NCBI GenBank assembly: GCA_038897215.1
Contig: JAWAWX010000001.1
Location: 160,001-224,000 of the forward strand
Length of the DNA stretch: 64,000 nt
Reading direction: 5' to 3'
Origin: Acidilobaceae archaeon
GTDB taxonomy: Archaea; Thermoproteota; Thermoprotei_A; Sulfolobales; Acidilobaceae
The position numbers were made by a program, and so were the translations under genes. Below the pieces are notes generated by a model. The model ran no database searches. It saw only the letters and a program-made list of their open reading frames with translations, and was not told the origin of the DNA. Of the stretch, positions 26,078 through 38,679 are shown in pieces; position 1 is the stretch's first letter; every line of letters starts with the position of its first letter.

Positions 26078-28711
26078 TTGAGGACTCTAGTCAGGCTGAT
26101 GGACACGCCGTGGGGGAGAGCTAGGCTCGTCGACTTGAAGAGCGTAGACTGGCTTCAGAGAGCTCCCTACACCGTGAGAGTCCTGGCCGAGAACATCGTT
26201 AGAAGCCTCGGAGAAGACGGGGGCGAGCGAGCTCTAGAAGCTCTGAGAGACTGGAGGAGGGGGTCTCGGGCAGAGATCCCCTTCTACCCGGCCAGGGTAG
26301 TCTCCCAGGACCTCACGGGCGTGGCTCTAGCTCTAGACCTCGCTCTCCTGAGAGAAGCGGTGGCGGCGAGAGGCCTAGACCCGGGGCTCGTGGACCCGTC
26401 CGTCAGAGTAGACCTGATCGTAGACCACAGCCTCCAAGTAGACAGATACGGCTCTAGGGGGGCTCTGCGAGAAAACATGAGGCTCGAGGCGCTGAGGAAT
26501 AGAGATAAGTTCAGGCTCCTGAAGTGGGCTCAGAGAGCGTTCAAGAACTTCAATGTGCTCCCCCCGGGCTCCGGCATAATACACCAGGTTAACGTGGAGC
26601 ATCTGGCTGAAGTCGTGCGCGCCGAGGACTATAGAGGAGAGCTCTGGGTCTTCCCGGACACGGTCATAGGGACGGATAGCCACACCACCATGGTCAACGC
26701 TCTAGGAGTCCTAGGCTGGGGGGTCGGGGGTCTCGAAGCGGAGGCAGTCATGCTCGGCGAGCCCTACTACATCTCTGTGCCCAGAGTCGTCGGCGTGAGG
26801 GTCTACGGAGAGCTGAGGGAAGGAGTCACGAGCACAGACCTGGCTCTCTACGTGACGGAGCTCTTGAGGAAGAAGGGTGTCGTCGAGGCCTTCGTCGAGT
26901 TCTACGGGGAGGCTCTCGGAGAGCTCCCAGTGTGGGCCAGGCTCCCCGTGGCCAACATGGCTCCAGAGTACGGGGCCACGACTGGGTTCTTCCCGATAGA
27001 CGAGAGGACGCTAGAGTACCTCTACGCTACCGGGAGGGAGGAGGCTAGAGTCAAGCTCGTAGAGGCCTACGCTAAGGCAGCCGGCCTCTGGCACGAGCCG
27101 GGCAACGAGCCAGAGTACAGCGAGGTAGTAGACCTCGACTTGAGCGACGTAGAGCCCTCCATAGCGGGCCCCCGAAACCCCTTCGAGAGAATCCCGCTGA
27201 GAGAAGCCAAGGCTAGAGTAGCGGCTAGCCTGCCTCAGAAGCGGTCCAGGCTAGAGGTAGAGTCGCGCGGAGCCAGGTACGTGGTGGAAGACGGCTATAT
27301 CGCCATAGCCGCTATAGCTAGCTGCACTAACACCGGGAGCCTAGACCTCCTCGTAGCAGCAGGACTCTTAGCCAAGAGAGCAGTAGAGAGAGGGCTTCAG
27401 GTCAAGCCTTGGGTCAAGACGAGCTTCACGCCAGGCAGCAGGCTAGTGGCTAGAGCTCTCGACGAACTCGGCTTAACCCCGTATCTTGAAGCACTGAGAT
27501 TCCACGTGGTGGGCTACGCTTGCGCTACCTGCATAGGCAACAGCGGCCCCCTAGCCCCGCCAGCCGAGGAGGCGGCTAGGAGAGGAGTCCACCTGGTCGC
27601 GGTCATAAGCGGGAACAGAAACTTCTCCGGCAGAATCCACCCGCTCGTCGGGAGCGTCTACTTGGCCAGCCCCCCTCTGGTGGTCGCCTACGCTATAGCG
27701 GGCCGCGTGGACATAGACCTAGAGCGGGAGCCCCTAGACCTAGACCCGGGCGGCGACCCGGTATACCTCAGAGACCTGTGGCCGCCGAGAGAGGAGGTGG
27801 AGAGAGAGCTCAGAAAGCTCAACATTAGGAGGCTGGCAGTAGAGGTCTACTCCTCTCTAGAGGAGCCCCCCGAGTGGGCCGAGATCGATGCCCCCGAGTC
27901 TCCGCTCTACGACTGGAAGCCCAGCGCTCAGGTAGTCAAGCCCCCGCTCCTCGGAGCCGGAGAGGAGCCGGAGCTCGAGGACATAAGGGGGGCTAGGATC
28001 CTGGTGCTCGCTCCGGACAACACGACCACCGACCACATAAGCCCAGCTGGGCCCATAAGGAGAGACTCTCAAGCAGGCAGATACCTCTCGGAGCTCGGAG
28101 TAGACCCGGAGAGAGAGGGGCTCACCTACGGCTCCATGAGGGGGAACCACGAGGTGATGGTCAGAGGGGCCTTCGACAACCCCGGCTTCAGGAACCTAGC
28201 AGCTAGCAGGAGCGGGGCCTGGGCTAGAGTGTGGCCGGAGGGAGGCGAGGTCTCGGTGTTCGAGGCGAGCAGAGTCTACGCCTCCAGAAAGACCCCTCTC
28301 GTCATAGTGGCTGGCAGGAACTACGGCATGGGCAGCAGTAGAGACTGGGCTGCGAGAGCCCCAAGGCTGCTGGGAGTCAGAGCAGTGATAGCGGAGAGCT
28401 TCGAGAGGATACACAGGAGGAACCTCATAGCCGTAGGCATACTGCCCCTCGAGGTCGAGGATAGGCTAATCGAGAAGCTCAGAGGAGACGAGGAGGTAGA
28501 CGTGATAGGCTTGAGAGACATAGCTCCAGGCTCTGAGGTCAGGCTCGTGTTCAGGAGGGGCGACGGCTCAGCGGTAGAGGCTAGAGCCAGAGTCAGGCTT
28601 GAGAACTGGGCAGAGCTCGAGTACTACAAGAGCGGGGGAGTACTGGGCTACGTCCTCAGGAAGATTCTCGAGAAGAGTCGTGGAGCGTCGCTGAGAGAAC
28701 CCTCGGCCTGA
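26078..28711 (+). CDS. acnA: aconitate hydratase A
   Basis: QDLTG, DHS, HQVNVE, GTDSHT, ASCTN, CATCIGN, NRNF, TTDHISP and GSSRDWAA motifs. Confidence 0.96.
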   Translation: MRTLVRLMDTPWGRARLVDLKSVDWLQRAPYTVRVLAENIVRSLGEDGGERALEALRDWRRGSRAEIPFYPARVVSQDLTGVALALDLALLREAVAARGLDPGLVDPSVRVDLIVDHSLQVDRYGSRGALRENMRLEALRNRDKFRLLKWAQRAFKNFNVLPPGSGIIHQVNVEHLAEVVRAEDYRGELWVFPDTVIGTDSHTTMVNALGVLGWGVGGLEAEAVMLGEPYYISVPRVVGVRVYGELREGVTSTDLALYVTELLRKKGVVEAFVEFYGEALGELPVWARLPVANMAPEYGATTGFFPIDERTLEYLYATGREEARVKLVEAYAKAAGLWHEPGNEPEYSEVVDLDLSDVEPSIAGPRNPFERIPLREAKARVAASLPQKRSRLEVESRGARYVVEDGYIAIAAIASCTNTGSLDLLVAAGLLAKRAVERGLQVKPWVKTSFTPGSRLVARALDELGLTPYLEALRFHVVGYACATCIGNSGPLAPPAEEAARRGVHLVAVISGNRNFSGRIHPLVGSVYLASPPLVVAYAIAGRVDIDLEREPLDLDPGGDPVYLRDLWPPREEVERELRKLNIRRLAVEVYSSLEEPPEWAEIDAPESPLYDWKPSAQVVKPPLLGAGEEPELEDIRGARILVLAPDNTTTDHISPAGPIRRDSQAGRYLSELGVDPEREGLTYGSMRGNHEVMVRGAFDNPGFRNLAASRSGAWARVWPEGGEVSVFEASRVYASRKTPLVIVAGRNYGMGSSRDWAARAPRLLGVRAVIAESFERIHRRNLIAVGILPLEVEDRLIEKLRGDEEVDVIGLRDIAPGSEVRLVFRRGDGSAVEARARVRLENWAELEYYKSGGVLGYVLRKILEKSRGASLREPSA

Positions 28712-29972
28712 GGGTCTTGCTCGGCTCCTCCGGTATCAAGCCCTGAGGTCTCAGGTAGAGGACTAGGAGGACGAGGACCCCGGTGACTATGTGGGGCATT
28801 ATGGCCTGAACCTCTGTGACAGCATGGCTCTCCAGCGAGACGCCCATAGCGGAGGCAGCGGCTTCGAGGACCTCGGGGGTTAGGAGGCTCGAGAGCCTCC
28901 TGAGGAGGTAGACTAGGAGAGCTCCCACTATCACACCCCTGTTGTTAGCCATGCCCCCGAGTATCATCATAGTCCACGGTAGGAAAGTCCAGTTCATTCT
29001 ATCGAAGCTAGTGGGTATGACGCTAAGCATGTAGAGAGTGTAGATAGCTCCCGCTAGGCTGGCTATAACGCAGCCGAGTATGAGGACTCTCATCTTGACA
29101 GCGCCCACGTCTCTCCCGAAGATGCCTGCTACCACCTCATCGTCTCTTATGCCTCTCAGTAGCCTCCCCAGCGGGCTATTAGACACCTTGACTGAGTACG
29201 CGTAGACAGCGATGAGGACAGCTAGTAGGAGGGCTGTGGTTACTATGAACGAGGGCGAGCCTACCCGCAGAGTATCGTTTAGAGAGCTCAGTAACCCGCT
29301 ATGAGGGATGACTTGGGGAGCGCTGACCCCGTAGGCTCCACCGCCTAGAAGCTCTAGGTTGTGGAAGATCACTGTCACCATCAACTCGGCCAAGACTAGA
29401 GAGAATATCGCTAGATAGTCTCCTCTAAGCCTTAGAGCCACGAGCCCCAAGACGAACGCAAAGAGTAGCGATAGGAGCACGCTCGAGAACAGCCCTAGAG
29501 ACAGGTATAGGAGCCAGAGGAAGAAGCTAGAGCTAGCGTGGCTCCCGATGATGTCCGAGACTCTAGCGCTCAGAGTCCTGTAGGTGGCTTGGACTAAGAC
29601 CTCCTGGAGGCTCCCCGCGTACCTAGCTATTATCTCGTCTGAGAGGAGGCTCTCTCTCAGACTGCTGTCAGCGAGCCCCACGATAGCTATGTAGAGCCTC
29701 ATAGCCATAGCGCTCATACCGAAAGCTCCTATGTAGACGAAGAGATGCAAGCCGAAGTGCGGTATCCCGGTATACCCGGCTACTAGGTTTAGAGATAGCA
29801 CTATGACAGCTAGAGCTAGTATCGACACGAGGTCAGCCTCGATGAGAAAGCCTACTCCTGTGAGCTTCCACACAGCTATCAGCACTACGGGAGTGGCGAC
29901 TACCAGAGCTAGAGCTAGAGCGTCTAAAGCCACGTCTCTACGCTCTCTAACCAGGCTTCTCACTAGCCCCAC
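28656..29972 (-). CDS. livM: branched-chain amino acid ABC permease, LivM-like
   Basis: LSLNLVAGYTG..HFG, LRLRGDYLAI, SPLGR..IRDDE and ILGG motifs. Confidence 0.9.
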   Translation of the reverse strand: MGLVRSLVRERRDVALDALALALVVATPVVLIAVWKLTGVGFLIEADLVSILALAVIVLSLNLVAGYTGIPHFGLHLFVYIGAFGMSAMAMRLYIAIVGLADSSLRESLLSDEIIARYAGSLQEVLVQATYRTLSARVSDIIGSHASSSFFLWLLYLSLGLFSSVLLSLLFAFVLGLVALRLRGDYLAIFSLVLAELMVTVIFHNLELLGGGAYGVSAPQVIPHSGLLSSLNDTLRVGSPSFIVTTALLLAVLIAVYAYSVKVSNSPLGRLLRGIRDDEVVAGIFGRDVGAVKMRVLILGCVIASLAGAIYTLYMLSVIPTSFDRMNWTFLPWTMMILGGMANNRGVIVGALLVYLLRRLSSLLTPEVLEAAASAMGVSLESHAVTEVQAIMPHIVTGVLVLLVLYLRPQGLIPEEPSKTLRPRVLSATLHDSSRESS

Positions 29973-30993
29973 CTCTACTGAAGCCCAGTACTCTCTCCCA
30001 GTCGATCGATGCTAACCCTCGGGGAGCGGCTAGCAGGACGACCATGATGGCGGTGAAGCTGAATATTCCCTTTAGCGCGTGTAGCTGAAGATTCAGTCCC
30101 GTCGTGAGTAGCACGAAGTTGTTTAGAGTCGTCGCTAGAATGCTCTCAGAGAACCCTATTATGAAGCCTCCGAGCATAGACAAGTATATAGATGTCATCC
30201 CTCCCAGCACGCTACCAGCGAATATAGATATCAGGAAGAGGTACTGCGTCCTAGTCGGGTTGATCCCACCGTAGTGGCTCGATAGCTGGAACCCCACGAG
30301 GCTCCCTATGACTCCTGAGAGGAACCCGGCTAGGAGCCAGGCAGTAACGTAGGCTCTATCCACGTCTATCCCGAGTACTCGAGCTAAGCTCGGGTTCTCT
30401 ATGGATGCTCTCAAAGCCACGCCCAGCATGGTCTTGTAGAGCAGGTAGTGCATCGCCACAGCTAGGATGACAGCGACAGGCAGTACTAGCAGGTCGCTCA
30501 GATACATGTATCCCAGCGGGGTCTCTAGCAGGACGTCGTAGGACCTGAGACCGATATCGATTATCTTCCGCACGTTCACAGCCGGCACTAGAGCCACGAC
30601 TATAGCTAGCGTCCCGGCTAAGACTATGTCGAAAGCTAGAGTGGATATCATCACCCCCACGTCTCCTATCCCTCTAGCTCTGAGAGGCTTGATGACGAGC
30701 AGGTACTCTGCTAGAGCGAGCAGAGCTACGAGGAGCCCGGCTATCGGGGGGACGGCTAGGTATAGTAGCACGTAGAGCGGGCCGCCTATATGCTCGTAGA
30801 ACACTCTGTCTATAGCGTAGACTGTGACCAGAGTCCCGCATATCACGAGAGTCCCTTGAGCGAAGTTCGGGACTTTGACGACCAGGTATACGAGAGTCAT
30901 CATCGCCGAGAGTAGCGCTAGACTCGAGGCGAAAGCCAGTCCTGCTATGATGTACTGGGGGCTCGGGGTAGCTAGTAGGAGCGTGTCGATCAA
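29947..30993 (-). CDS. livH: branched-chain amino acid ABC permease, LivH-like
   Basis: NFAQG, LGVALRASIENP.LA..GI, VLGG and PRGL motifs. Confidence 0.9.
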   Translation of the reverse strand: MIDTLLLATPSPQYIIAGLAFASSLALLSAMMTLVYLVVKVPNFAQGTLVICGTLVTVYAIDRVFYEHIGGPLYVLLYLAVPPIAGLLVALLALAEYLLVIKPLRARGIGDVGVMISTLAFDIVLAGTLAIVVALVPAVNVRKIIDIGLRSYDVLLETPLGYMYLSDLLVLPVAVILAVAMHYLLYKTMLGVALRASIENPSLARVLGIDVDRAYVTAWLLAGFLSGVIGSLVGFQLSSHYGGINPTRTQYLFLISIFAGSVLGGMTSIYLSMLGGFIIGFSESILATTLNNFVLLTTGLNLQLHALKGIFSFTAIMVVLLAAPRGLASIDWERVLGFSRGGASEKPG

Positions 30994-31703
30994 GGCGATA
31001 ACCCCACGTACTTAGAGCCCAGCTCGGGGTCTCTCGCCAGGGTTACAGCGTCGCCGAAGTACGCTACCCTACCGCTGACTAGTAGTAGAGCCGTGTCGGC
31101 TATGCTTAGAGCTAGCCTAGCGTTCTGCTCTACTAGTAGCACTGTCTTGCCGAACTCGTCTCTAAGCCTCGATATATGCGAGGCCATCCACTTAGCTATA
31201 GAGGGCGCTACCCCCGCTGTCGGCTCGTCGAGCATTATGAGCTTAGGCTCTCTGATCAGCACCATAGCCAGCCCGAGCATCTGCCTCTCTCCGCCACTAA
31301 GGCTACTTGCTTTCTGCTCCATCCTCTTCTTGAGGAAGGGGAAGAACTCGAGTACTCTTTCAATCCTCTCCCGCGCCTCCTCTTCTCTCAGCCCGTACGC
31401 GGCTATCTTCAGATTCTCCTCTACGCTTAGATTGAGAAACACGTTGTCTGTCTGAGGCAAGTAGGCTAGCCCTAGTCTCGCCTTCTCGTGGGGAGGCACT
31501 CTAGTCACGTCTATTTCCTCAAACACGACTCTCCCGGAGTAGACGCTAGCCAGCCCGAATATCGCCTTCAGCAACGTGCTCTTACCGCTACCATTAGGGC
31601 CCACTATGGCGACTATCTCTCCCCTCTTGGCGCCGAACGAAATATCGAATAGTATCTGTAGCTTCCCATAGCCAGCGCTCAGAGACTCGACCCGTAGACT
31701 CAT
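30990..31703 (-). CDS. livF: ABC ATPase, LivF-like
   Basis: GPNGSGKST, LSGGERQM, LDEPTAG and LVEQN motifs. Confidence 0.92.
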   Translation of the reverse strand: MSLRVESLSAGYGKLQILFDISFGAKRGEIVAIVGPNGSGKSTLLKAIFGLASVYSGRVVFEEIDVTRVPPHEKARLGLAYLPQTDNVFLNLSVEENLKIAAYGLREEEARERIERVLEFFPFLKKRMEQKASSLSGGERQMLGLAMVLIREPKLIMLDEPTAGVAPSIAKWMASHISRLRDEFGKTVLLVEQNARLALSIADTALLLVSGRVAYFGDAVTLARDPELGSKYVGLSP

Positions 31704-32467
31704 CAAGCCTCACCCAGATAGCTTGCTACAACCTTCGGGTCTTCTAGCACCTCGCGCGGGCTACCCTCAGATATCACCTCGCCCAGGTGTAGAGCGTAGG
31801 CGTAGTCAGCGTGCTCAGCCGCGATGTCTAGCCTGTGCTCTACTATCAGGAACGTGAGCCCTCTCTCCTGAGAGAGGCTCTTGAGAGTCCTGAATATCTC
31901 TCTGGCTAGGACGGGGTTGACTCCGGCTGTGGGCTCGTCTAGAAGGACTAGCTTAGCGTTCTCTGCGACCATTATTCTAGCCAAGTCGAGGAGCTTCATC
32001 TGGCCCCCACTGAGCTCTCCAGGCCTCCTCCCCCTGACTCTCGAGAGGGAGAGCTTGTCTGTCGCGCTCTCCACGTCAGACATAGTTCTAGACTCGAAGC
32101 TGAGCCAGAGAGACTCTATGGGGGCTCGCGAGAGGCTCTCGCCGGGGTTACCGGACCTCCCGATAGCTATGTTCTCGTCTACCAGGAGGTTCTGCATAAG
32201 CCGAGGGATCTGGAAGCCTCTCACCAGCCCGAGCTTGTGTCTCTCGTGTAGAGGCATCCTAGTGATATCTGTCTTCTCGAAGACTACTCTGCCGGAGTCA
32301 GGCTCTATGAGCCCACTGATTATATTCAAGAGAGTAGTCTTACCGCTACCATTAGGCCCTATGAGTAGAGTCATCTTGCCCCTAGGGACTCTAATAGACA
32401 CTCCCTTGAGAGCCACGAGAGCTCCGAACTTCTTCCAGACGTTCTCCACCTCTAGTATAGCGTCCAC
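31703..32467 (-). CDS. livG: ABC ATPase, LivG-like
   Basis: GPNGSGKTT, LSGGQMK, LDEPTAG, IVEH and V..SYLG motifs. Confidence 0.92.
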   Translation of the reverse strand: MDAILEVENVWKKFGALVALKGVSIRVPRGKMTLLIGPNGSGKTTLLNIISGLIEPDSGRVVFEKTDITRMPLHERHKLGLVRGFQIPRLMQNLLVDENIAIGRSGNPGESLSRAPIESLWLSFESRTMSDVESATDKLSLSRVRGRRPGELSGGQMKLLDLARIMVAENAKLVLLDEPTAGVNPVLAREIFRTLKSLSQERGLTFLIVEHRLDIAAEHADYAYALHLGEVISEGSPREVLEDPKVVASYLGEA

Positions 32468-32605: not shown

Positions 32606-34024
32606 TCATCTCCTTCTGAGCACTATGTATCCTGCGGCGGCGACCGCGACTATCGCTATCACGACTGCTGCTAGAAGAACCGGCGAGACTCCTGGAGCCG
32701 CCACGTTAGCCTCTATAGTCTTGAACACTGTCTCCGCTAGAGCCGGGAATCCTGGGCTCTTCGGGTCGTAGGCGTACATCTCTAAGACCTTGACGCCCAG
32801 CTCCTCAGCTCTTCTAGCTGTGTAGTCTGCCAGCATCCTCCCCCAGTAGTCGTTCCGGTAGACTATCACTACCTGCTTTACCTTATCGTCTGCAATCATT
32901 CTAGCTATGGCTAAGCACTGGTAGTCGTCGGGCGGCGGGAACCTGTATATCGTGTCTTCGAACTTGAGCGCTGGTGAGGTGCTCGACGGGCTTATGACTA
33001 CGGACCTGCTTCCTCCAAGTATCAGGTCTCTCACTTTAGCTAGCTCGCTACTAGCCATCGGTCCAGCGAAGACCCTGATCCCTTTAGCGTAGAGAGCGCT
33101 ATAGGCGTCTTTAGCCTTCTCGGGGTCTGTTCCAGTGTCTCTCAGCTCGTAGGTGAACCTGAACTTGAACCCGTTCTGTGTGAGCCACGCGTTCAGGTCC
33201 TCTATAGCGATCTTGACGGCCTCCACGTTGGCTTTGCCGAAGGACGCTAGGCCTCCTGTCAGCGGGTAGAGGAGTCCGATAGTCACTGTTACAGTCGTGG
33301 GCGGCTCTTTCCTCACCAGTTGCCTCAGCTTCGCTGCATCCACGCTGGGCATAGGTCTACCAGCGGGCCTCGTGGCCAGCGGGTCTGCCTCGTACTTCTT
33401 TATCGTGTCTGTCTCCATGTCCCATAGAGCTTTCAGAGTCCAGTCGTACTTGCCGTCTTTCTTGGTTACCCCGAATATGCCGTAGTCTGTTCCAACCCTG
33501 TCCCCGTATCGGTCGAGGACGATCTTGCCCGAGGCTCCGTAGTAGATCTTGATGATCTCCGGTATAAGCGCGGCTATCGTGTCGACGTCGGCGTCAGTAG
33601 CTCCCCCCGCGGCCACCACCGCCAGGCCTAGGACCCATATCGCGTCGTAGCTGTTGAACGCGTAGCTGTCGGGAGCGTAGCCGACAGCGTCTCTCACGCT
33701 CCAGTAGATTCTCCTCACTAGCTCTATGTTCTCCAGGCTTAGAGATATAGTGGCTCTGAAGTTAGTCCTAACCGCTAGGTCTGCTGCTCTCTCGCTAGCC
33801 ACTAGTTTCTCGCTCAGAGCCAGGCCGTCTGTGCCGTACCATCTTATCTTGAACGCTATAGGGTACTTGATGGCTTCCGTCATGAAGTCCACTCCTTCCT
33901 CGAAGCTCACTAGAACTAGTCCTGTTTCTTCAGCTGTAGGCTTATCTTGCGCTATCGCTATAGTCGAGTAGGCGTACGCGAGAACTAAGGCTACGAGTAG
34001 TAGAGCTAGAGCCTTTCTCTTCAT
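32606..34024 (-). CDS. Liv-type substrate-binding protein, apparently circularly permuted, with signal peptide and C-terminal membrane anchor
   Basis: MKRK plus hydrophobic signal; the canonical N-terminal motif IGLLYPLTG lies mid-protein; C-terminal TM helix followed by RRR. Confidence 0.88.
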   Translation of the reverse strand: MKRKALALLLVALVLAYAYSTIAIAQDKPTAEETGLVLVSFEEGVDFMTEAIKYPIAFKIRWYGTDGLALSEKLVASERAADLAVRTNFRATISLSLENIELVRRIYWSVRDAVGYAPDSYAFNSYDAIWVLGLAVVAAGGATDADVDTIAALIPEIIKIYYGASGKIVLDRYGDRVGTDYGIFGVTKKDGKYDWTLKALWDMETDTIKKYEADPLATRPAGRPMPSVDAAKLRQLVRKEPPTTVTVTIGLLYPLTGGLASFGKANVEAVKIAIEDLNAWLTQNGFKFRFTYELRDTGTDPEKAKDAYSALYAKGIRVFAGPMASSELAKVRDLILGGSRSVVISPSSTSPALKFEDTIYRFPPPDDYQCLAIARMIADDKVKQVVIVYRNDYWGRMLADYTARRAEELGVKVLEMYAYDPKSPGFPALAETVFKTIEANVAAPGVSPVLLAAVVIAIVAVAAAGYIVLRRR

Positions 34025-34105
34025 CGCTATTTCACCCACTCTAGACTAACTGGTTTCTAGTGCTACTCTTGCAGAAGCTTATAAGCTTTAAAGAGGGGAT
34101 TATTA

Positions 34106-35554: not shown

Positions 35555-36316
35555 GTGTTGAGATTCCACCTAGCTTACTCTAAGGCTTCTAAGTTCAAGT
35601 ACGTCACTCTAGCTTTATCCAAGATCAGCGATGAGTGTAATCTAAGTGTTACAGAGGATGGAGTCACGTTCTGGATGATGAGCCCCGATAAGACGATCAT
35701 GGCTGTAGTCTCGATACCCCCGCTATCGCTCGACGCTTTCGAGGTAGACGAGCCAGTAAGGCTCGTCGTGAGAACAGAGGATTTACACAGGGTAGCGAAG
35801 AGAGCGGGGAGGAACGATGTGCTAGAGCTAGAGCTACCAGAGGGGGAGACGGGCTTCGTGTCATCGAGGCTCGTCGATAAGAAGACGGGGATGCAGCGGT
35901 CCTTCGAGATCCCAGTGCTCTCGACTAGCGGGGCCGAGTACAGAGAGCCCAGGATCAGCACTACGGCTAGGTTCACGATGAACTCCAAGGACTTCAAGCT
36001 GCTATCGCAGGACGTCAAGGTAGTAGGAGACACTCTAGCGGTGAGAGCAGTCTCCGGAGAGGTCAGAGTGACTGCTAGAGGCGAGAACAAGCTCTACGAG
36101 TGGGTCCTCAAGCCCGGAGACCCCCTCATAGACCTAGACGTCGAGGAGCCCTCCGAGTCTCTCTACTCGAGGTCATCGATAGACATAGCGGTGAAGCCTG
36201 CTGGAGCAGCTGAGACGGTTAGATTCGAGTTCGCCACAAACTACCCGGCCAGGCTGACATTCAACCTGCCTGGCGGAGAAAAGATGATGATACTTGTGGC
36301 TCCCATCGTCGAGTAG
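35555..36316 (+). CDS. pcn: PCNA sliding clamp (one crenarchaeal paralog)
   Basis: KISDE..TEDG..MSPDK..M; C-terminal F.T.YP.RL.F..G....VAP. Confidence 0.9.
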   Translation: MLRFHLAYSKASKFKYVTLALSKISDECNLSVTEDGVTFWMMSPDKTIMAVVSIPPLSLDAFEVDEPVRLVVRTEDLHRVAKRAGRNDVLELELPEGETGFVSSRLVDKKTGMQRSFEIPVLSTSGAEYREPRISTTARFTMNSKDFKLLSQDVKVVGDTLAVRAVSGEVRVTARGENKLYEWVLKPGDPLIDLDVEEPSESLYSRSSIDIAVKPAGAAETVRFEFATNYPARLTFNLPGGEKMMILVAPIVE

Positions 36317-36972: not shown

Positions 36973-38679
36973 ATGACTGCCGAGACTGTAAGCGATACCT
37001 CGGCAAACCCTGCTCCTAGCCTCCTCTCGGGAGAACTCCTCAAGCTCTTAGGCGAGGGGGAGAAGCCTGTCAAAACCACTCTGAGCTTATGTCCTGAGTG
37101 TCGCAGACTTGTCTTAGCGCTTATACTCGAGCGTGAGGGGAGACTCTACATAAGGAAAGAGTGCCCGGTTCACGGCATCGAAGAGGATGTCTACTTTGGA
37201 GACGCGAGTATCTACGCTAAATTCATGAGGTTCCAGGAGAGGGGAAAGAGAGTCCTAGCAGAGGAGCACAGCGCAGAAGCTAGTGAGCTATGTCCCTTTA
37301 GTTGCGGACTCTGCTCGCTTCATGAAAACGCTCCAGCTTTAGTCAACATAGTGGTCACTAACCGTTGCGACCTCTCATGCTGGTACTGCTTCTTCTACAT
37401 GGAGAGAGCCGGCTATCTATACGAGCCGAGTATTGAGGAGATAGAGTTCATGGCTGAACGCGTAGGGAAGCAGAAGTACCCTGCTGGAGTCCAGCTCACT
37501 GGAGGAGAGCCTCTTCTGAGAGAAGACTTGGTCGAGATTGTTAGAGCGATCAGAGACAAGGGTGTTCCATACGTTCAGCTCAACACGAATGGGATTAGGT
37601 TAGCAGTCATGTTCTTAGAGAATGAGGAAAAGGCAGTGAATTACGCTAAGAGTCTAGCTGAAGCTGGGGTCTCAGCTATCTACATGAGCTTCGATGGAGT
37701 CACTCCGGAGACTAACTGGAAGAATCACTACGAGGCTCCATTCGCTCTCGAAGCTTTCAGAAGAGCCGAGCTCAACGTGGTTCTAGTCCCTACACTCTTG
37801 AGGGGAGTCAATGACCACGAGCTAGGAGACATGATCAGATTCGCTGGCAAACACATCGAGGTAGTAAGGGGGGTCAACGTCCAGCCCGTGAGCTTCACTG
37901 GGAGAGCTAGTAGAGCAGAAAGGGAGAGATACAGGATCACCATACCTGATGTAATGAGAGCTGTTGAGGATCAAACAAGTGGAGAGATACCTAGAAAGTC
38001 GTGGTTCCCCGTCCCTATCGTGGCTAAGCTAACGAGACTCATGGACTTCATCCTAGGCGGAGACTACCTAGCCTGGGCTAACCACCCTGTCTGTGGAGCA
38101 GCCACATTCGCTATCGTAGCTGAGAGAGATGAGAACCACGTACCAAGGAGATTCATAGCTCTCACTGACTTTTTCGACGTAGAAGGGTTCATAGAGTATG
38201 TGGATGAGCTAAGAATAGAGGTCGAGAAGAGGGGGGGAGCAACACTTCTAGATAAAGCCAGACTACTCGCCAGTATTCGTAGATTCGTTGACGCTAGCAA
38301 GCTACCTAGAGACATCAAGCCCGCGCGCCTGCTAGCTAAGTTCCTGCTAGGAGCCAATATAGAGGCTGTGAAAGAGTTCTTGAAGCACAGTCTTCTAATT
38401 GGAGCAATGCACTTCATGGACCTCTACAACTACGACGTGGAGAGAGTGAAAAAATGCAATATCCTCTACGCTCTCCCAGACGGGAGGCTAGTACCGTTCT
38501 GCGCCTTCAACGTGCTCCCAGACCGCTATAGGGAGGAGGTGCAGAGAAGGTTCTCGAAGCCAGTCACAAAAGCCAGCACCAGGGAGGTCTTCAAATACGA
38601 TAGAGGCAAGTACATAGAGTCGATATTGAAGCACCCTATCTACTTGAGCTACTATCGCGGGATACTGTCCGGTCTCTGA
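36973..38679 (+). CDS. tes: tetraether lipid synthase (GDGT-MAS/Tes, MJ0619-family radical SAM)
   Basis: CPEC..CPVHG rubredoxin-like site, CPFSCGLCSLH, CDLSCWYC radical-SAM motif, HPVCG, MHFMDLYNYD..KKC..PFC. Confidence 0.88.
   Translation: MTAETVSDTSANPAPSLLSGELLKLLGEGEKPVKTTLSLCPECRRLVLALILEREGRLYIRKECPVHGIEEDVYFGDASIYAKFMRFQERGKRVLAEEHSAEASELCPFSCGLCSLHENAPALVNIVVTNRCDLSCWYCFFYMERAGYLYEPSIEEIEFMAERVGKQKYPAGVQLTGGEPLLREDLVEIVRAIRDKGVPYVQLNTNGIRLAVMFLENEEKAVNYAKSLAEAGVSAIYMSFDGVTPETNWKNHYEAPFALEAFRRAELNVVLVPTLLRGVNDHELGDMIRFAGKHIEVVRGVNVQPVSFTGRASRAERERYRITIPDVMRAVEDQTSGEIPRKSWFPVPIVAKLTRLMDFILGGDYLAWANHPVCGAATFAIVAERDENHVPRRFIALTDFFDVEGFIEYVDELRIEVEKRGGATLLDKARLLASIRRFVDASKLPRDIKPARLLAKFLLGANIEAVKEFLKHSLLIGAMHFMDLYNYDVERVKKCNILYALPDGRLVPFCAFNVLPDRYREEVQRRFSKPVTKASTREVFKYDRGKYIESILKHPIYLSYYRGILSGL

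Follow-up and report, generated by a model that had tools for sequence, protein, structure and literature searches.

Substrate-binding proteins of the LivJ/LivK type and their relatives (Peripla_BP_6; Type I / Cluster B; structures 1z15, 2lbp, 4n0q, 3td9, and 4gnr) belong to a family of which LivJ and LivK themselves are free in the periplasm. Some archaeal binding proteins, for example those described for Sulfolobus, carry a signal peptide, a Ser/Thr/Pro-rich stalk, and a C-terminal transmembrane (TM) anchor. As a rule, natural circular permutations of proteins are ancient events deduced from comparisons of distant families, and their origin and cost have mostly been studied with engineered proteins. 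The classic route to a permutation, duplication followed by truncation, is represented by DNA methyltransferases, saposin/swaposin, and engineered intermediates.

The closest precedent for the protein described here is TpMglB-2 (Tp0684) of Treponema pallidum, which was shown crystallographically to be a circular permutant of a Type I sugar-binding protein (PMC4990184). In TpMglB-2, the relocated segment is limited to the first three strands of the N lobe (~70-100 residues), which now lie at the C-terminus and hardly resemble canonical relatives in sequence (PMC4990184). The permutant still binds ligand, possesses an extra connecting segment, and is tethered to the membrane; its authors proposed a class termed 'Type Ic / Cluster Bc' and speculated on a link between topology and tethering (PMC4990184). 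Full-text searching of the literature turned up TpMglB-2 as the sole relevant case and no permuted binding protein of the Liv type.

We analyzed a stretch of 64,000 nucleotides from an Acidilobaceae archaeon (the window; positions 160,001 to 224,000 of contig JAWAWX010000001.1), in which an open reading frame on the minus strand (32606..34039) encodes a Liv-type binding protein. In the following, A denotes the N-terminal half of the canonical domain, B its C-terminal half, and T a Pro-rich tail, at the beginning of which lie the last strand region and the motif DP[FL]A..[RK]P. By profile score the window protein belongs to the LivJ/LivK family, with which it has the structure of the N-terminal half, the family motifs, and the livGFHM context in common. 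In contrast to LivJ/LivK, its parts are permuted to the order B-T-A, its termini would lie in a loop that corresponds to ~LivJ residue 195, and it is predicted to be tethered to the membrane by a C-terminal TM helix.

Like TpMglB-2, the window protein has a permuted chain order, and its model suggests a Type I fold with an ordered connecting segment and a membrane tether. However, TpMglB-2 is an MglB-type sugar binder, whereas the window protein matched only Peripla_BP_6 and ANF_receptor in Pfam, and the cut of TpMglB-2 lies inside the N lobe, whereas in the window protein the whole N-terminal half (~195 residues) follows the C-terminal half. Unlike TpMglB-2, the family of the window protein includes canonical orthologues that are up to 90-94% identical; the origin of the permutation is legible in the DNA, and re-cutting took place repeatedly, with two cut points. 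An assignment of the window protein to the Type Ic subclass was considered and rejected, because family, cut, and moved segment all differ. The predicted structure aligned colinearly with TpMglB-2 (6bgc) over 241 residues (model 62-445, Z 13.1, rmsd 3.8, 11% identity), in a register that is possibly lobe-swapped.

The Sulfolobus-type layout is found exactly in the canonical orthologues P0008, P0027, and G143. The window protein shares with it a signal-peptide-like N-terminus, the TM helix, and the basic tail, but lacks the flexible (TP)n stalk, and the ordered part of the stalk serves as internal connector. In line with the classic duplication-truncation route, tandem fusions, junction remnants, and a partial duplicate occur in the Liv family. 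Unlike in the classic cases, only the mature domain was rotated, with export signal and anchor remaining fixed, and in contrast to ancient splits between families the events are recent (sisters with 85-94% identity) and recurrent among orthologues.

Our reading, to which we assign a probability of roughly 85%, is that the gene encodes a working circularly permuted receptor (B-T-A) of the adjacent LivGFHM importer and that the order of its parts was re-cut repeatedly in the family. Three cyclic orders among orthologues, their recurrence, and their recency are the notable new aspects: a single-copy, essential-looking transporter component occurs in three chain orders among closely related archaea. 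The analysis goes beyond the original prediction by tracing the linker to a wrap of the canonical protein, by placing signal peptide and anchor outside the rotation, and by revealing recurrence with three cyclic orders.

Order of parts in the gene and its operon

The open reading frame comprises 477 aa when counted from GTG. The true start is likely the ATG at 34024 (MKRKALALLL) rather than the GTG, since relatives start at the equivalent position. The chain is composed of signal peptide, B, T, A, a 7-residue tether, a TM helix, and RRR, as follows (residues in GTG numbering):

33950..34024, minus strand: signal peptide, residues 6-30, MKRK plus hydrophobic core, predicted cut between AIA and Q (direct sequence reading)
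33395..33934, minus strand: segment B, residues 36-215, C-terminal half of the type I binding-protein fold, first in the chain (ANF_receptor match)
33293..33394, minus strand: segment T, residues 216-249, Pro-rich connector from the old C-terminus to the old N-terminus (model and homology)
32705..33292, minus strand: segment A, residues 250-445, N-terminal half of the fold (IGLLYPLTG ... YDP ... last helix), second in the chain (Peripla_BP_6 match)
32684..32704, minus strand: tether, residues 446-452, AAPGVSP, linking the last helix of A to the membrane helix (model helices)
32609..32683, minus strand: C-terminal TM anchor and RRR tail, residues 453-477 (hydrophobic run 450-474, model helix 453-476)
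32606-32608, minus strand: stop codon (sequence)

Homologous signal peptides are present in canonical and permuted orthologues alike, and that of the window protein is probably of the Sec type and cleaved at the predicted site. The TM anchor, too, is homologous to the anchor of the canonical orthologues.

The original prediction had placed motifs of the C-terminal half directly behind the signal peptide, followed by a Pro-rich linker and the canonical N-terminal half. All of these elements were located accordingly: LVLVSFEE, WYGTDG, PDSYAFNSYDAIWVL, and GASGKIVLDRYGDR before residue 200, the Pro-rich stretch at 213-249, and IGLLYPLTG, DTGTDP, GPMASS, ISPSSTS, YRFPPPD, VYRNDYWG, and YDP after residue 250, with a hydrophobic helix and RRR at the end. 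A motif set in this order is far beyond chance. The whole protein matched the Pfam profile Peripla_BP_6 with an E-value of 1.2e-28 (101.3 bits; cut-off 31.7). A separate scan of the two halves, which had been proposed together with the permutation, gave inverted order and abutting coverage: residues 251-435 alone matched positions 1-183 of the Peripla_BP_6 profile (E 3e-26) and residues 42-193 alone matched positions 183-352 of the related ANF_receptor profile (E 7e-7). Both halves of the domain are hence present in one copy each, and the colinear order from N-terminal to C-terminal half was not found. In phmmer searches against PDB sequences, segment A matched residues 10-194 of 4n0q and segment B gave no significant match. 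The identity of B is based on its Pfam match and on an alignment in which it pairs with the second half of canonical P0008 and P0027.

Directly downstream and on the same strand lie the genes for all components of an ABC importer, which agrees with the intact transporter that had been claimed:

31703..32467, minus strand: livG-type ATPase (ABC_tran and BCA_ABC_TP_C)
30990..31706, minus strand: livF-type ATPase (ABC_tran)
29947..30993, minus strand: livH-type permease (BPD_transp_2)
28656..29972, minus strand: livM-type permease (BPD_transp_2)

The same livGFHM arrangement was present at all loci of relatives that were examined. The window gene is the sole PF13458 (Peripla_BP_6) gene in the 1.16-Mb single-contig genome.

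If the permuted reading frame were an assembly chimera or a decaying pseudogene, it would not give rise to a working protein. This explanation is extremely improbable: the gene is located in a single-contig genome as the only binding protein of its operon, the order B-T-A recurs in >15 independent assemblies and metagenome sequences (NCBI MAGs, JGI, ENA, Logan), the frames are intact, and the fold is predicted with very high confidence (see below). Among permuted orthologues dN/dS was 0.095-0.138, compared to 0.101 for one canonical pair, and from these values the permuted orthologues are judged to be under purifying selection, like the canonical ones. The same observations bear out the earlier proposal of a natural circular permutation and its rejection of a misassembly.

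Elsewhere in the window, the plus strand encodes a radical SAM protein whose N-terminus carries a zinc ribbon of the HMPTM type (36973-38679; Pfam PF04055 and PF23545). At 35555-36316 (plus strand), a 253-aa open reading frame, for which a Pfam search at E 1e-5 gave no match, occupies the place where the loci of relatives have a PCNA gene (weak PCNA_N/PCNA_C matches there). The convergent reading frames of the livM-type permease (minus strand) and aconitase (plus strand), as listed, overlap at their 3' ends by 56 nt (28656-28711).

Predicted fold and origin of the connector

An AlphaFold model based on an 82-row alignment showed a single globule with a mean pLDDT of 95.5 and a pTM of 0.89. The connector (216-249) had pLDDT values of 96-98 and comprised a short strand and a helix (235-241), and the last two helices (431-445 and the membrane helix 453-476) were 7 residues apart. 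The best Foldseek matches were Leu/Ile/Val-binding proteins (4n0q, 3ipc, 1z15, 2lbp, 3td9), each covering only ~200 columns. With VIA-align, model residues 250-446 were superimposed on residues ~1-195 of LivJ/LivK-type structures (Z 12-13, ~190 residues). Such matches to one half only are what order-dependent aligners should give for a permutant, and the support for the whole fold consists of the model confidence and the half-by-half matches. The top structural matches also included 5er3 (Z 15.1) and sugar binders that aligned to model residues 33-414, at 8-12% identity, which was attributed to the pseudo-symmetry of the lobes; membership in this other family was rejected, because the sequence profiles are unambiguously of the Peripla_BP_6 type.

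According to the model, the cut would map to ~LivJ residue 195, within the surface loop that in the canonical order leads from the last helix of A into the first B strand. By the published LivJ domain limits, this residue would lie within lobe 2. Together with the structural alignment to LivJ residues ~1-195, these limits suggest that the termini and the membrane attachment were moved into lobe 2, which, as the original prediction proposed, might alter docking on LivHM.

In the canonical orthologues P0008, P0027, and G143, the signal peptide is followed by A, B, and T, and these in turn by a (TP)n spacer, a TM helix, and RR(R). Segment T is common to the C-terminus of canonical proteins and the connector of permuted ones, as seen by comparing PTIDMTKFMALL of P0027 with PTVDLAKFRALV of P0005 and PSVDAAKLRQLV of the window protein. 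In an AlphaFold model of canonical P0027 (pLDDT 92.5), T (421-450) was ordered with pLDDT values of 95-97 and displayed the same strand-plus-helix pattern as the connector of the window protein, and low confidence was confined to the (TP)n stretch. The conserved T motif and the ordered T in this model imply that the canonical wrap was already docked before the permutation. The modeled connector is accordingly the already ordered C-terminal wrap of the canonical protein, which in the permutant is predicted to run straight on into strand 1 of A. Export signal and C-terminal anchor kept their original places, the rotation being limited to the mature domain. The spacer in front of the TM helix is a (TP)n stretch of 15-45 residues in canonical orthologues vs ~7 residues in the window protein.

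Orthologues in three cyclic orders

Canonical genes (P0008, P0027) and permuted genes share the neighborhood PCNA / FAD oxidoreductase / binding protein-livGFHM / aconitase and are therefore orthologues by position. These positional orthologues of the same family occur in the orders ABT (canonical), BTA (window gene), and TAB. Within one genus, BTA was found in three species, ABT in four, and TAB in one. The TAB form is known from one MAG (G144 = P0203, a single-member cluster; L045:1411-2874, plus strand) and is composed of signal peptide, T (last strand and wrap), A, B, (TP)n, and TM helix; its B lacks the last strand, i.e., the circle was cut in the turn of the last hairpin.

In trees of concatenated A and B segments, canonical and permuted proteins were interleaved within a fully supported clade, and an independent tree of LivG, F, H, and M (1,236 columns) showed the same interleaving. 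A single permuted clade was rejected by an AU test in which the groups were named after the first tree had been seen (delta lnL 182, p 3e-6). A focused tree contained three rearranged lineages, each with a canonical sister of 85-94% identity. P0007 (BTA) is sister to P0205 (ABT), with 90% identity and an identical 32-residue signal peptide; P0209 (a cluster of 43 member sequences) and P0213, both BTA, are sister to G143 (ABT); and G144 (TAB) is sister to G147 (ABT), with 85% identity. Older BTA clades are formed by the genus of the window (G000, G151/P0004, P0003), by P0005/P0006 with G141/G142/G146, and by P0009/P0032/P0238/P0240/G169. A distant lineage with the order B-linker-A was found in another family of the order (G014, L026:1483-2883, minus strand; G084, L033:1468-2931, minus strand; 27-28% identity). 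Its proteins have an N-terminal TM anchor and a Thr-rich stalk and no C-terminal anchor, and the permuted gene is directly followed by a gene for a LivH-type permease.

Parsimony required 4-5 changes on each tree. We estimate at least five independent rearrangement events, a number that is uncertain, as is their direction, because older nodes are poorly resolved. Within the family, BTA appears to have at least three to five origins and TAB a single one. Judged from these phylogenies, rearrangement is both repeated and recent among close relatives. The joins of the BTA genes P0007 and P0209 differ at all three junctions, which fits with independent events.

A single ancient permutation could mimic such recurrence if the two forms had coexisted as paralogues, undergone gene conversion, and then been lost differentially. 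Liv operons of other organisms often carry two binding proteins, which would accommodate such coexistence; a tandem duplicate is present at one locus (L062, see below), and the cut position is nearly the same across permuted lineages. However, neither the 67 genomes of the family survey nor the 121 genomes searched in the order-level survey contained a genome with both forms, and at the loci viewed there was one binding-protein gene per operon. The duplicate at L062 consists of two BTA copies rather than of one ABT and one BTA copy, TAB was cut elsewhere, and the junction details vary between BTA lineages, as described for P0007 and P0209. We consider a single ancient event improbable and favor repeated re-cutting.

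Close relatives also differ in the mode of anchoring, as seen for P0009/L009 vs G137/L061 and also for P0030, P0010, and L012-L015. The canonical sisters of the P0009 group have an N-terminal TM anchor and a Ser/Thr stalk and end with ...NPLQC, whereas the permuted proteins of the P0009 group combine a signal peptide that looks cleavable with a C-terminal stalk and a TM helix.

Proposed route of rearrangement and function

DNA comparisons of sister pairs revealed a clean block relocation with colinear flanks at 76-97% identity. Blocks were swapped between L003 and L004 (76-77% identity) and between L003 and L063 (92-97% identity), and the block moved between G144 and G147 (83% identity) comprised just ~140 nt. 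In permuted genes, A is preceded by a remnant of the signal-peptide end. The joins of T to A echo this end (AQV-KEITIG vs VQEV-TEITIG; AQVTEVTIG vs ARVEVTIG), and some of them echo the (TP)n spacer instead.

Tandem fusions, from (A-B)x2 to (A-B)x5, abound in the wider binding-protein family. Dozens of clusters with tandem Liv domains were found at ~30% identity to the window protein, among them P0024 with five complete Liv-type domain copies in 1,943 aa and the further tandem proteins P0025, P0028, and P0037. A duplication is also visible at the P0209 locus L062 (JGI 3300058691 contig), where positions 1-660 at the contig start hold a partial second copy (...B-T-A', 602 nt) directly upstream of an intact B-T-A gene. 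The partial copy is 96.2% identical to the intact gene, has the same T-to-A join, and runs out of frame into the sequence for the signal-peptide core of that gene, with a CTAC/CTAG microhomology at the fusion point. The start of the intact gene appears to have been rebuilt from out-of-frame A' sequence. This duplicate, situated at a contig end, is a copy of an already permuted gene.

Based on junction remnants, tandem fusions, and the partial duplicate of L062, tandem duplication followed by microhomology-mediated deletions is most likely the route of rearrangement. The original prediction had likewise suggested duplication and deletion. These three lines of evidence agree with it, but an ABT-ABT intermediate was not found in the clade. 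The search of relatives that it had proposed confirmed the same order in other species but uncovered only distant tandem parents: searches for longer proteins and exhaustive searches for a close parent of the form SP-A-B-T-A-B-T-TM returned distant fusions only (~26-33% identity).

Alternatively, each re-cut might have occurred in one step by block translocation or by replication template switching inside the gene. The DNA comparisons, which show just a clean relocation of one block between colinear flanks, and the absence of the ABT-ABT intermediate among the close relatives searched are in line with this possibility. We regard it as rather unlikely, because the T-to-A joins retain traces of the signal-peptide end (AQV turned into VQEV or ARV) and of (TP)n, which are expected where the duplicated unit spanned the joins, and because the tandem fusions and the partial duplicate indicate that duplication is frequent in the family and at this locus. 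According to the duplication-deletion route, a tandem duplication within or of the gene would have been followed by microhomology deletions around the low-complexity Pro/Thr-coding stalk.

The gene product would act as membrane-tethered substrate-binding receptor for the adjacent LivGFHM-type ABC importer. It would be exported via its signal peptide, cleaved at the predicted site, and then tethered by the C-terminal helix, with the wrap T presumably bridging the old C-terminus and the old N-terminus while signal peptide and anchor remain unmoved. The globule is predicted to hang from the membrane helix by only ~7 residues. Since the sequence retains the conserved family motifs and the model the fold, the presumably bilobed protein would be expected to close around a ligand resembling an amino acid and to dock on LivHM in the manner of its canonical relatives. 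Family, conserved motifs, and operon suggest that the ligand is probably an amino acid.

A more speculative idea, which we regard as doubtful, is that the gene represents a hot spot where the orders ABT, BTA, and TAB are reshuffled and selected for the site and the closeness of membrane attachment relative to the face docking on LivHM. Tandem duplications around the Pro/Thr-coding repeats, being unstable, might then supply rearranged variants that coexist in populations. If true, circular permutation would be an ordinary, fast, and adaptive variation of tethered receptors, and near-isogenic natural topological isomers would be available for testing the influence of connectivity on folding, stability, and transport.

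For the preferred reading of a working permutant that was re-cut repeatedly, the orthologues provide a natural test set in which connectivity and tether position can be related to folding, thermostability, ligand binding, and permease docking. They also offer evidence on the route of a permutation: a pre-docked wrap that made the old ends neighbors, a fixed signal and anchor, remnants of duplication, and joins at microhomologies. The cut sites, validated by nature, and the natural linker could be used for engineering biosensors of the Liv type. With respect to annotation, profile searches call such proteins an ordinary 'ABC transporter substrate-binding protein' despite the half that is out of order.

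A Liv-type binding domain was also found fused to a Ser/Thr protein kinase domain in P0246 (825 aa, JGI; 39% identity to the G144 protein), possibly a sensor kinase whose ectodomain is a binding protein.
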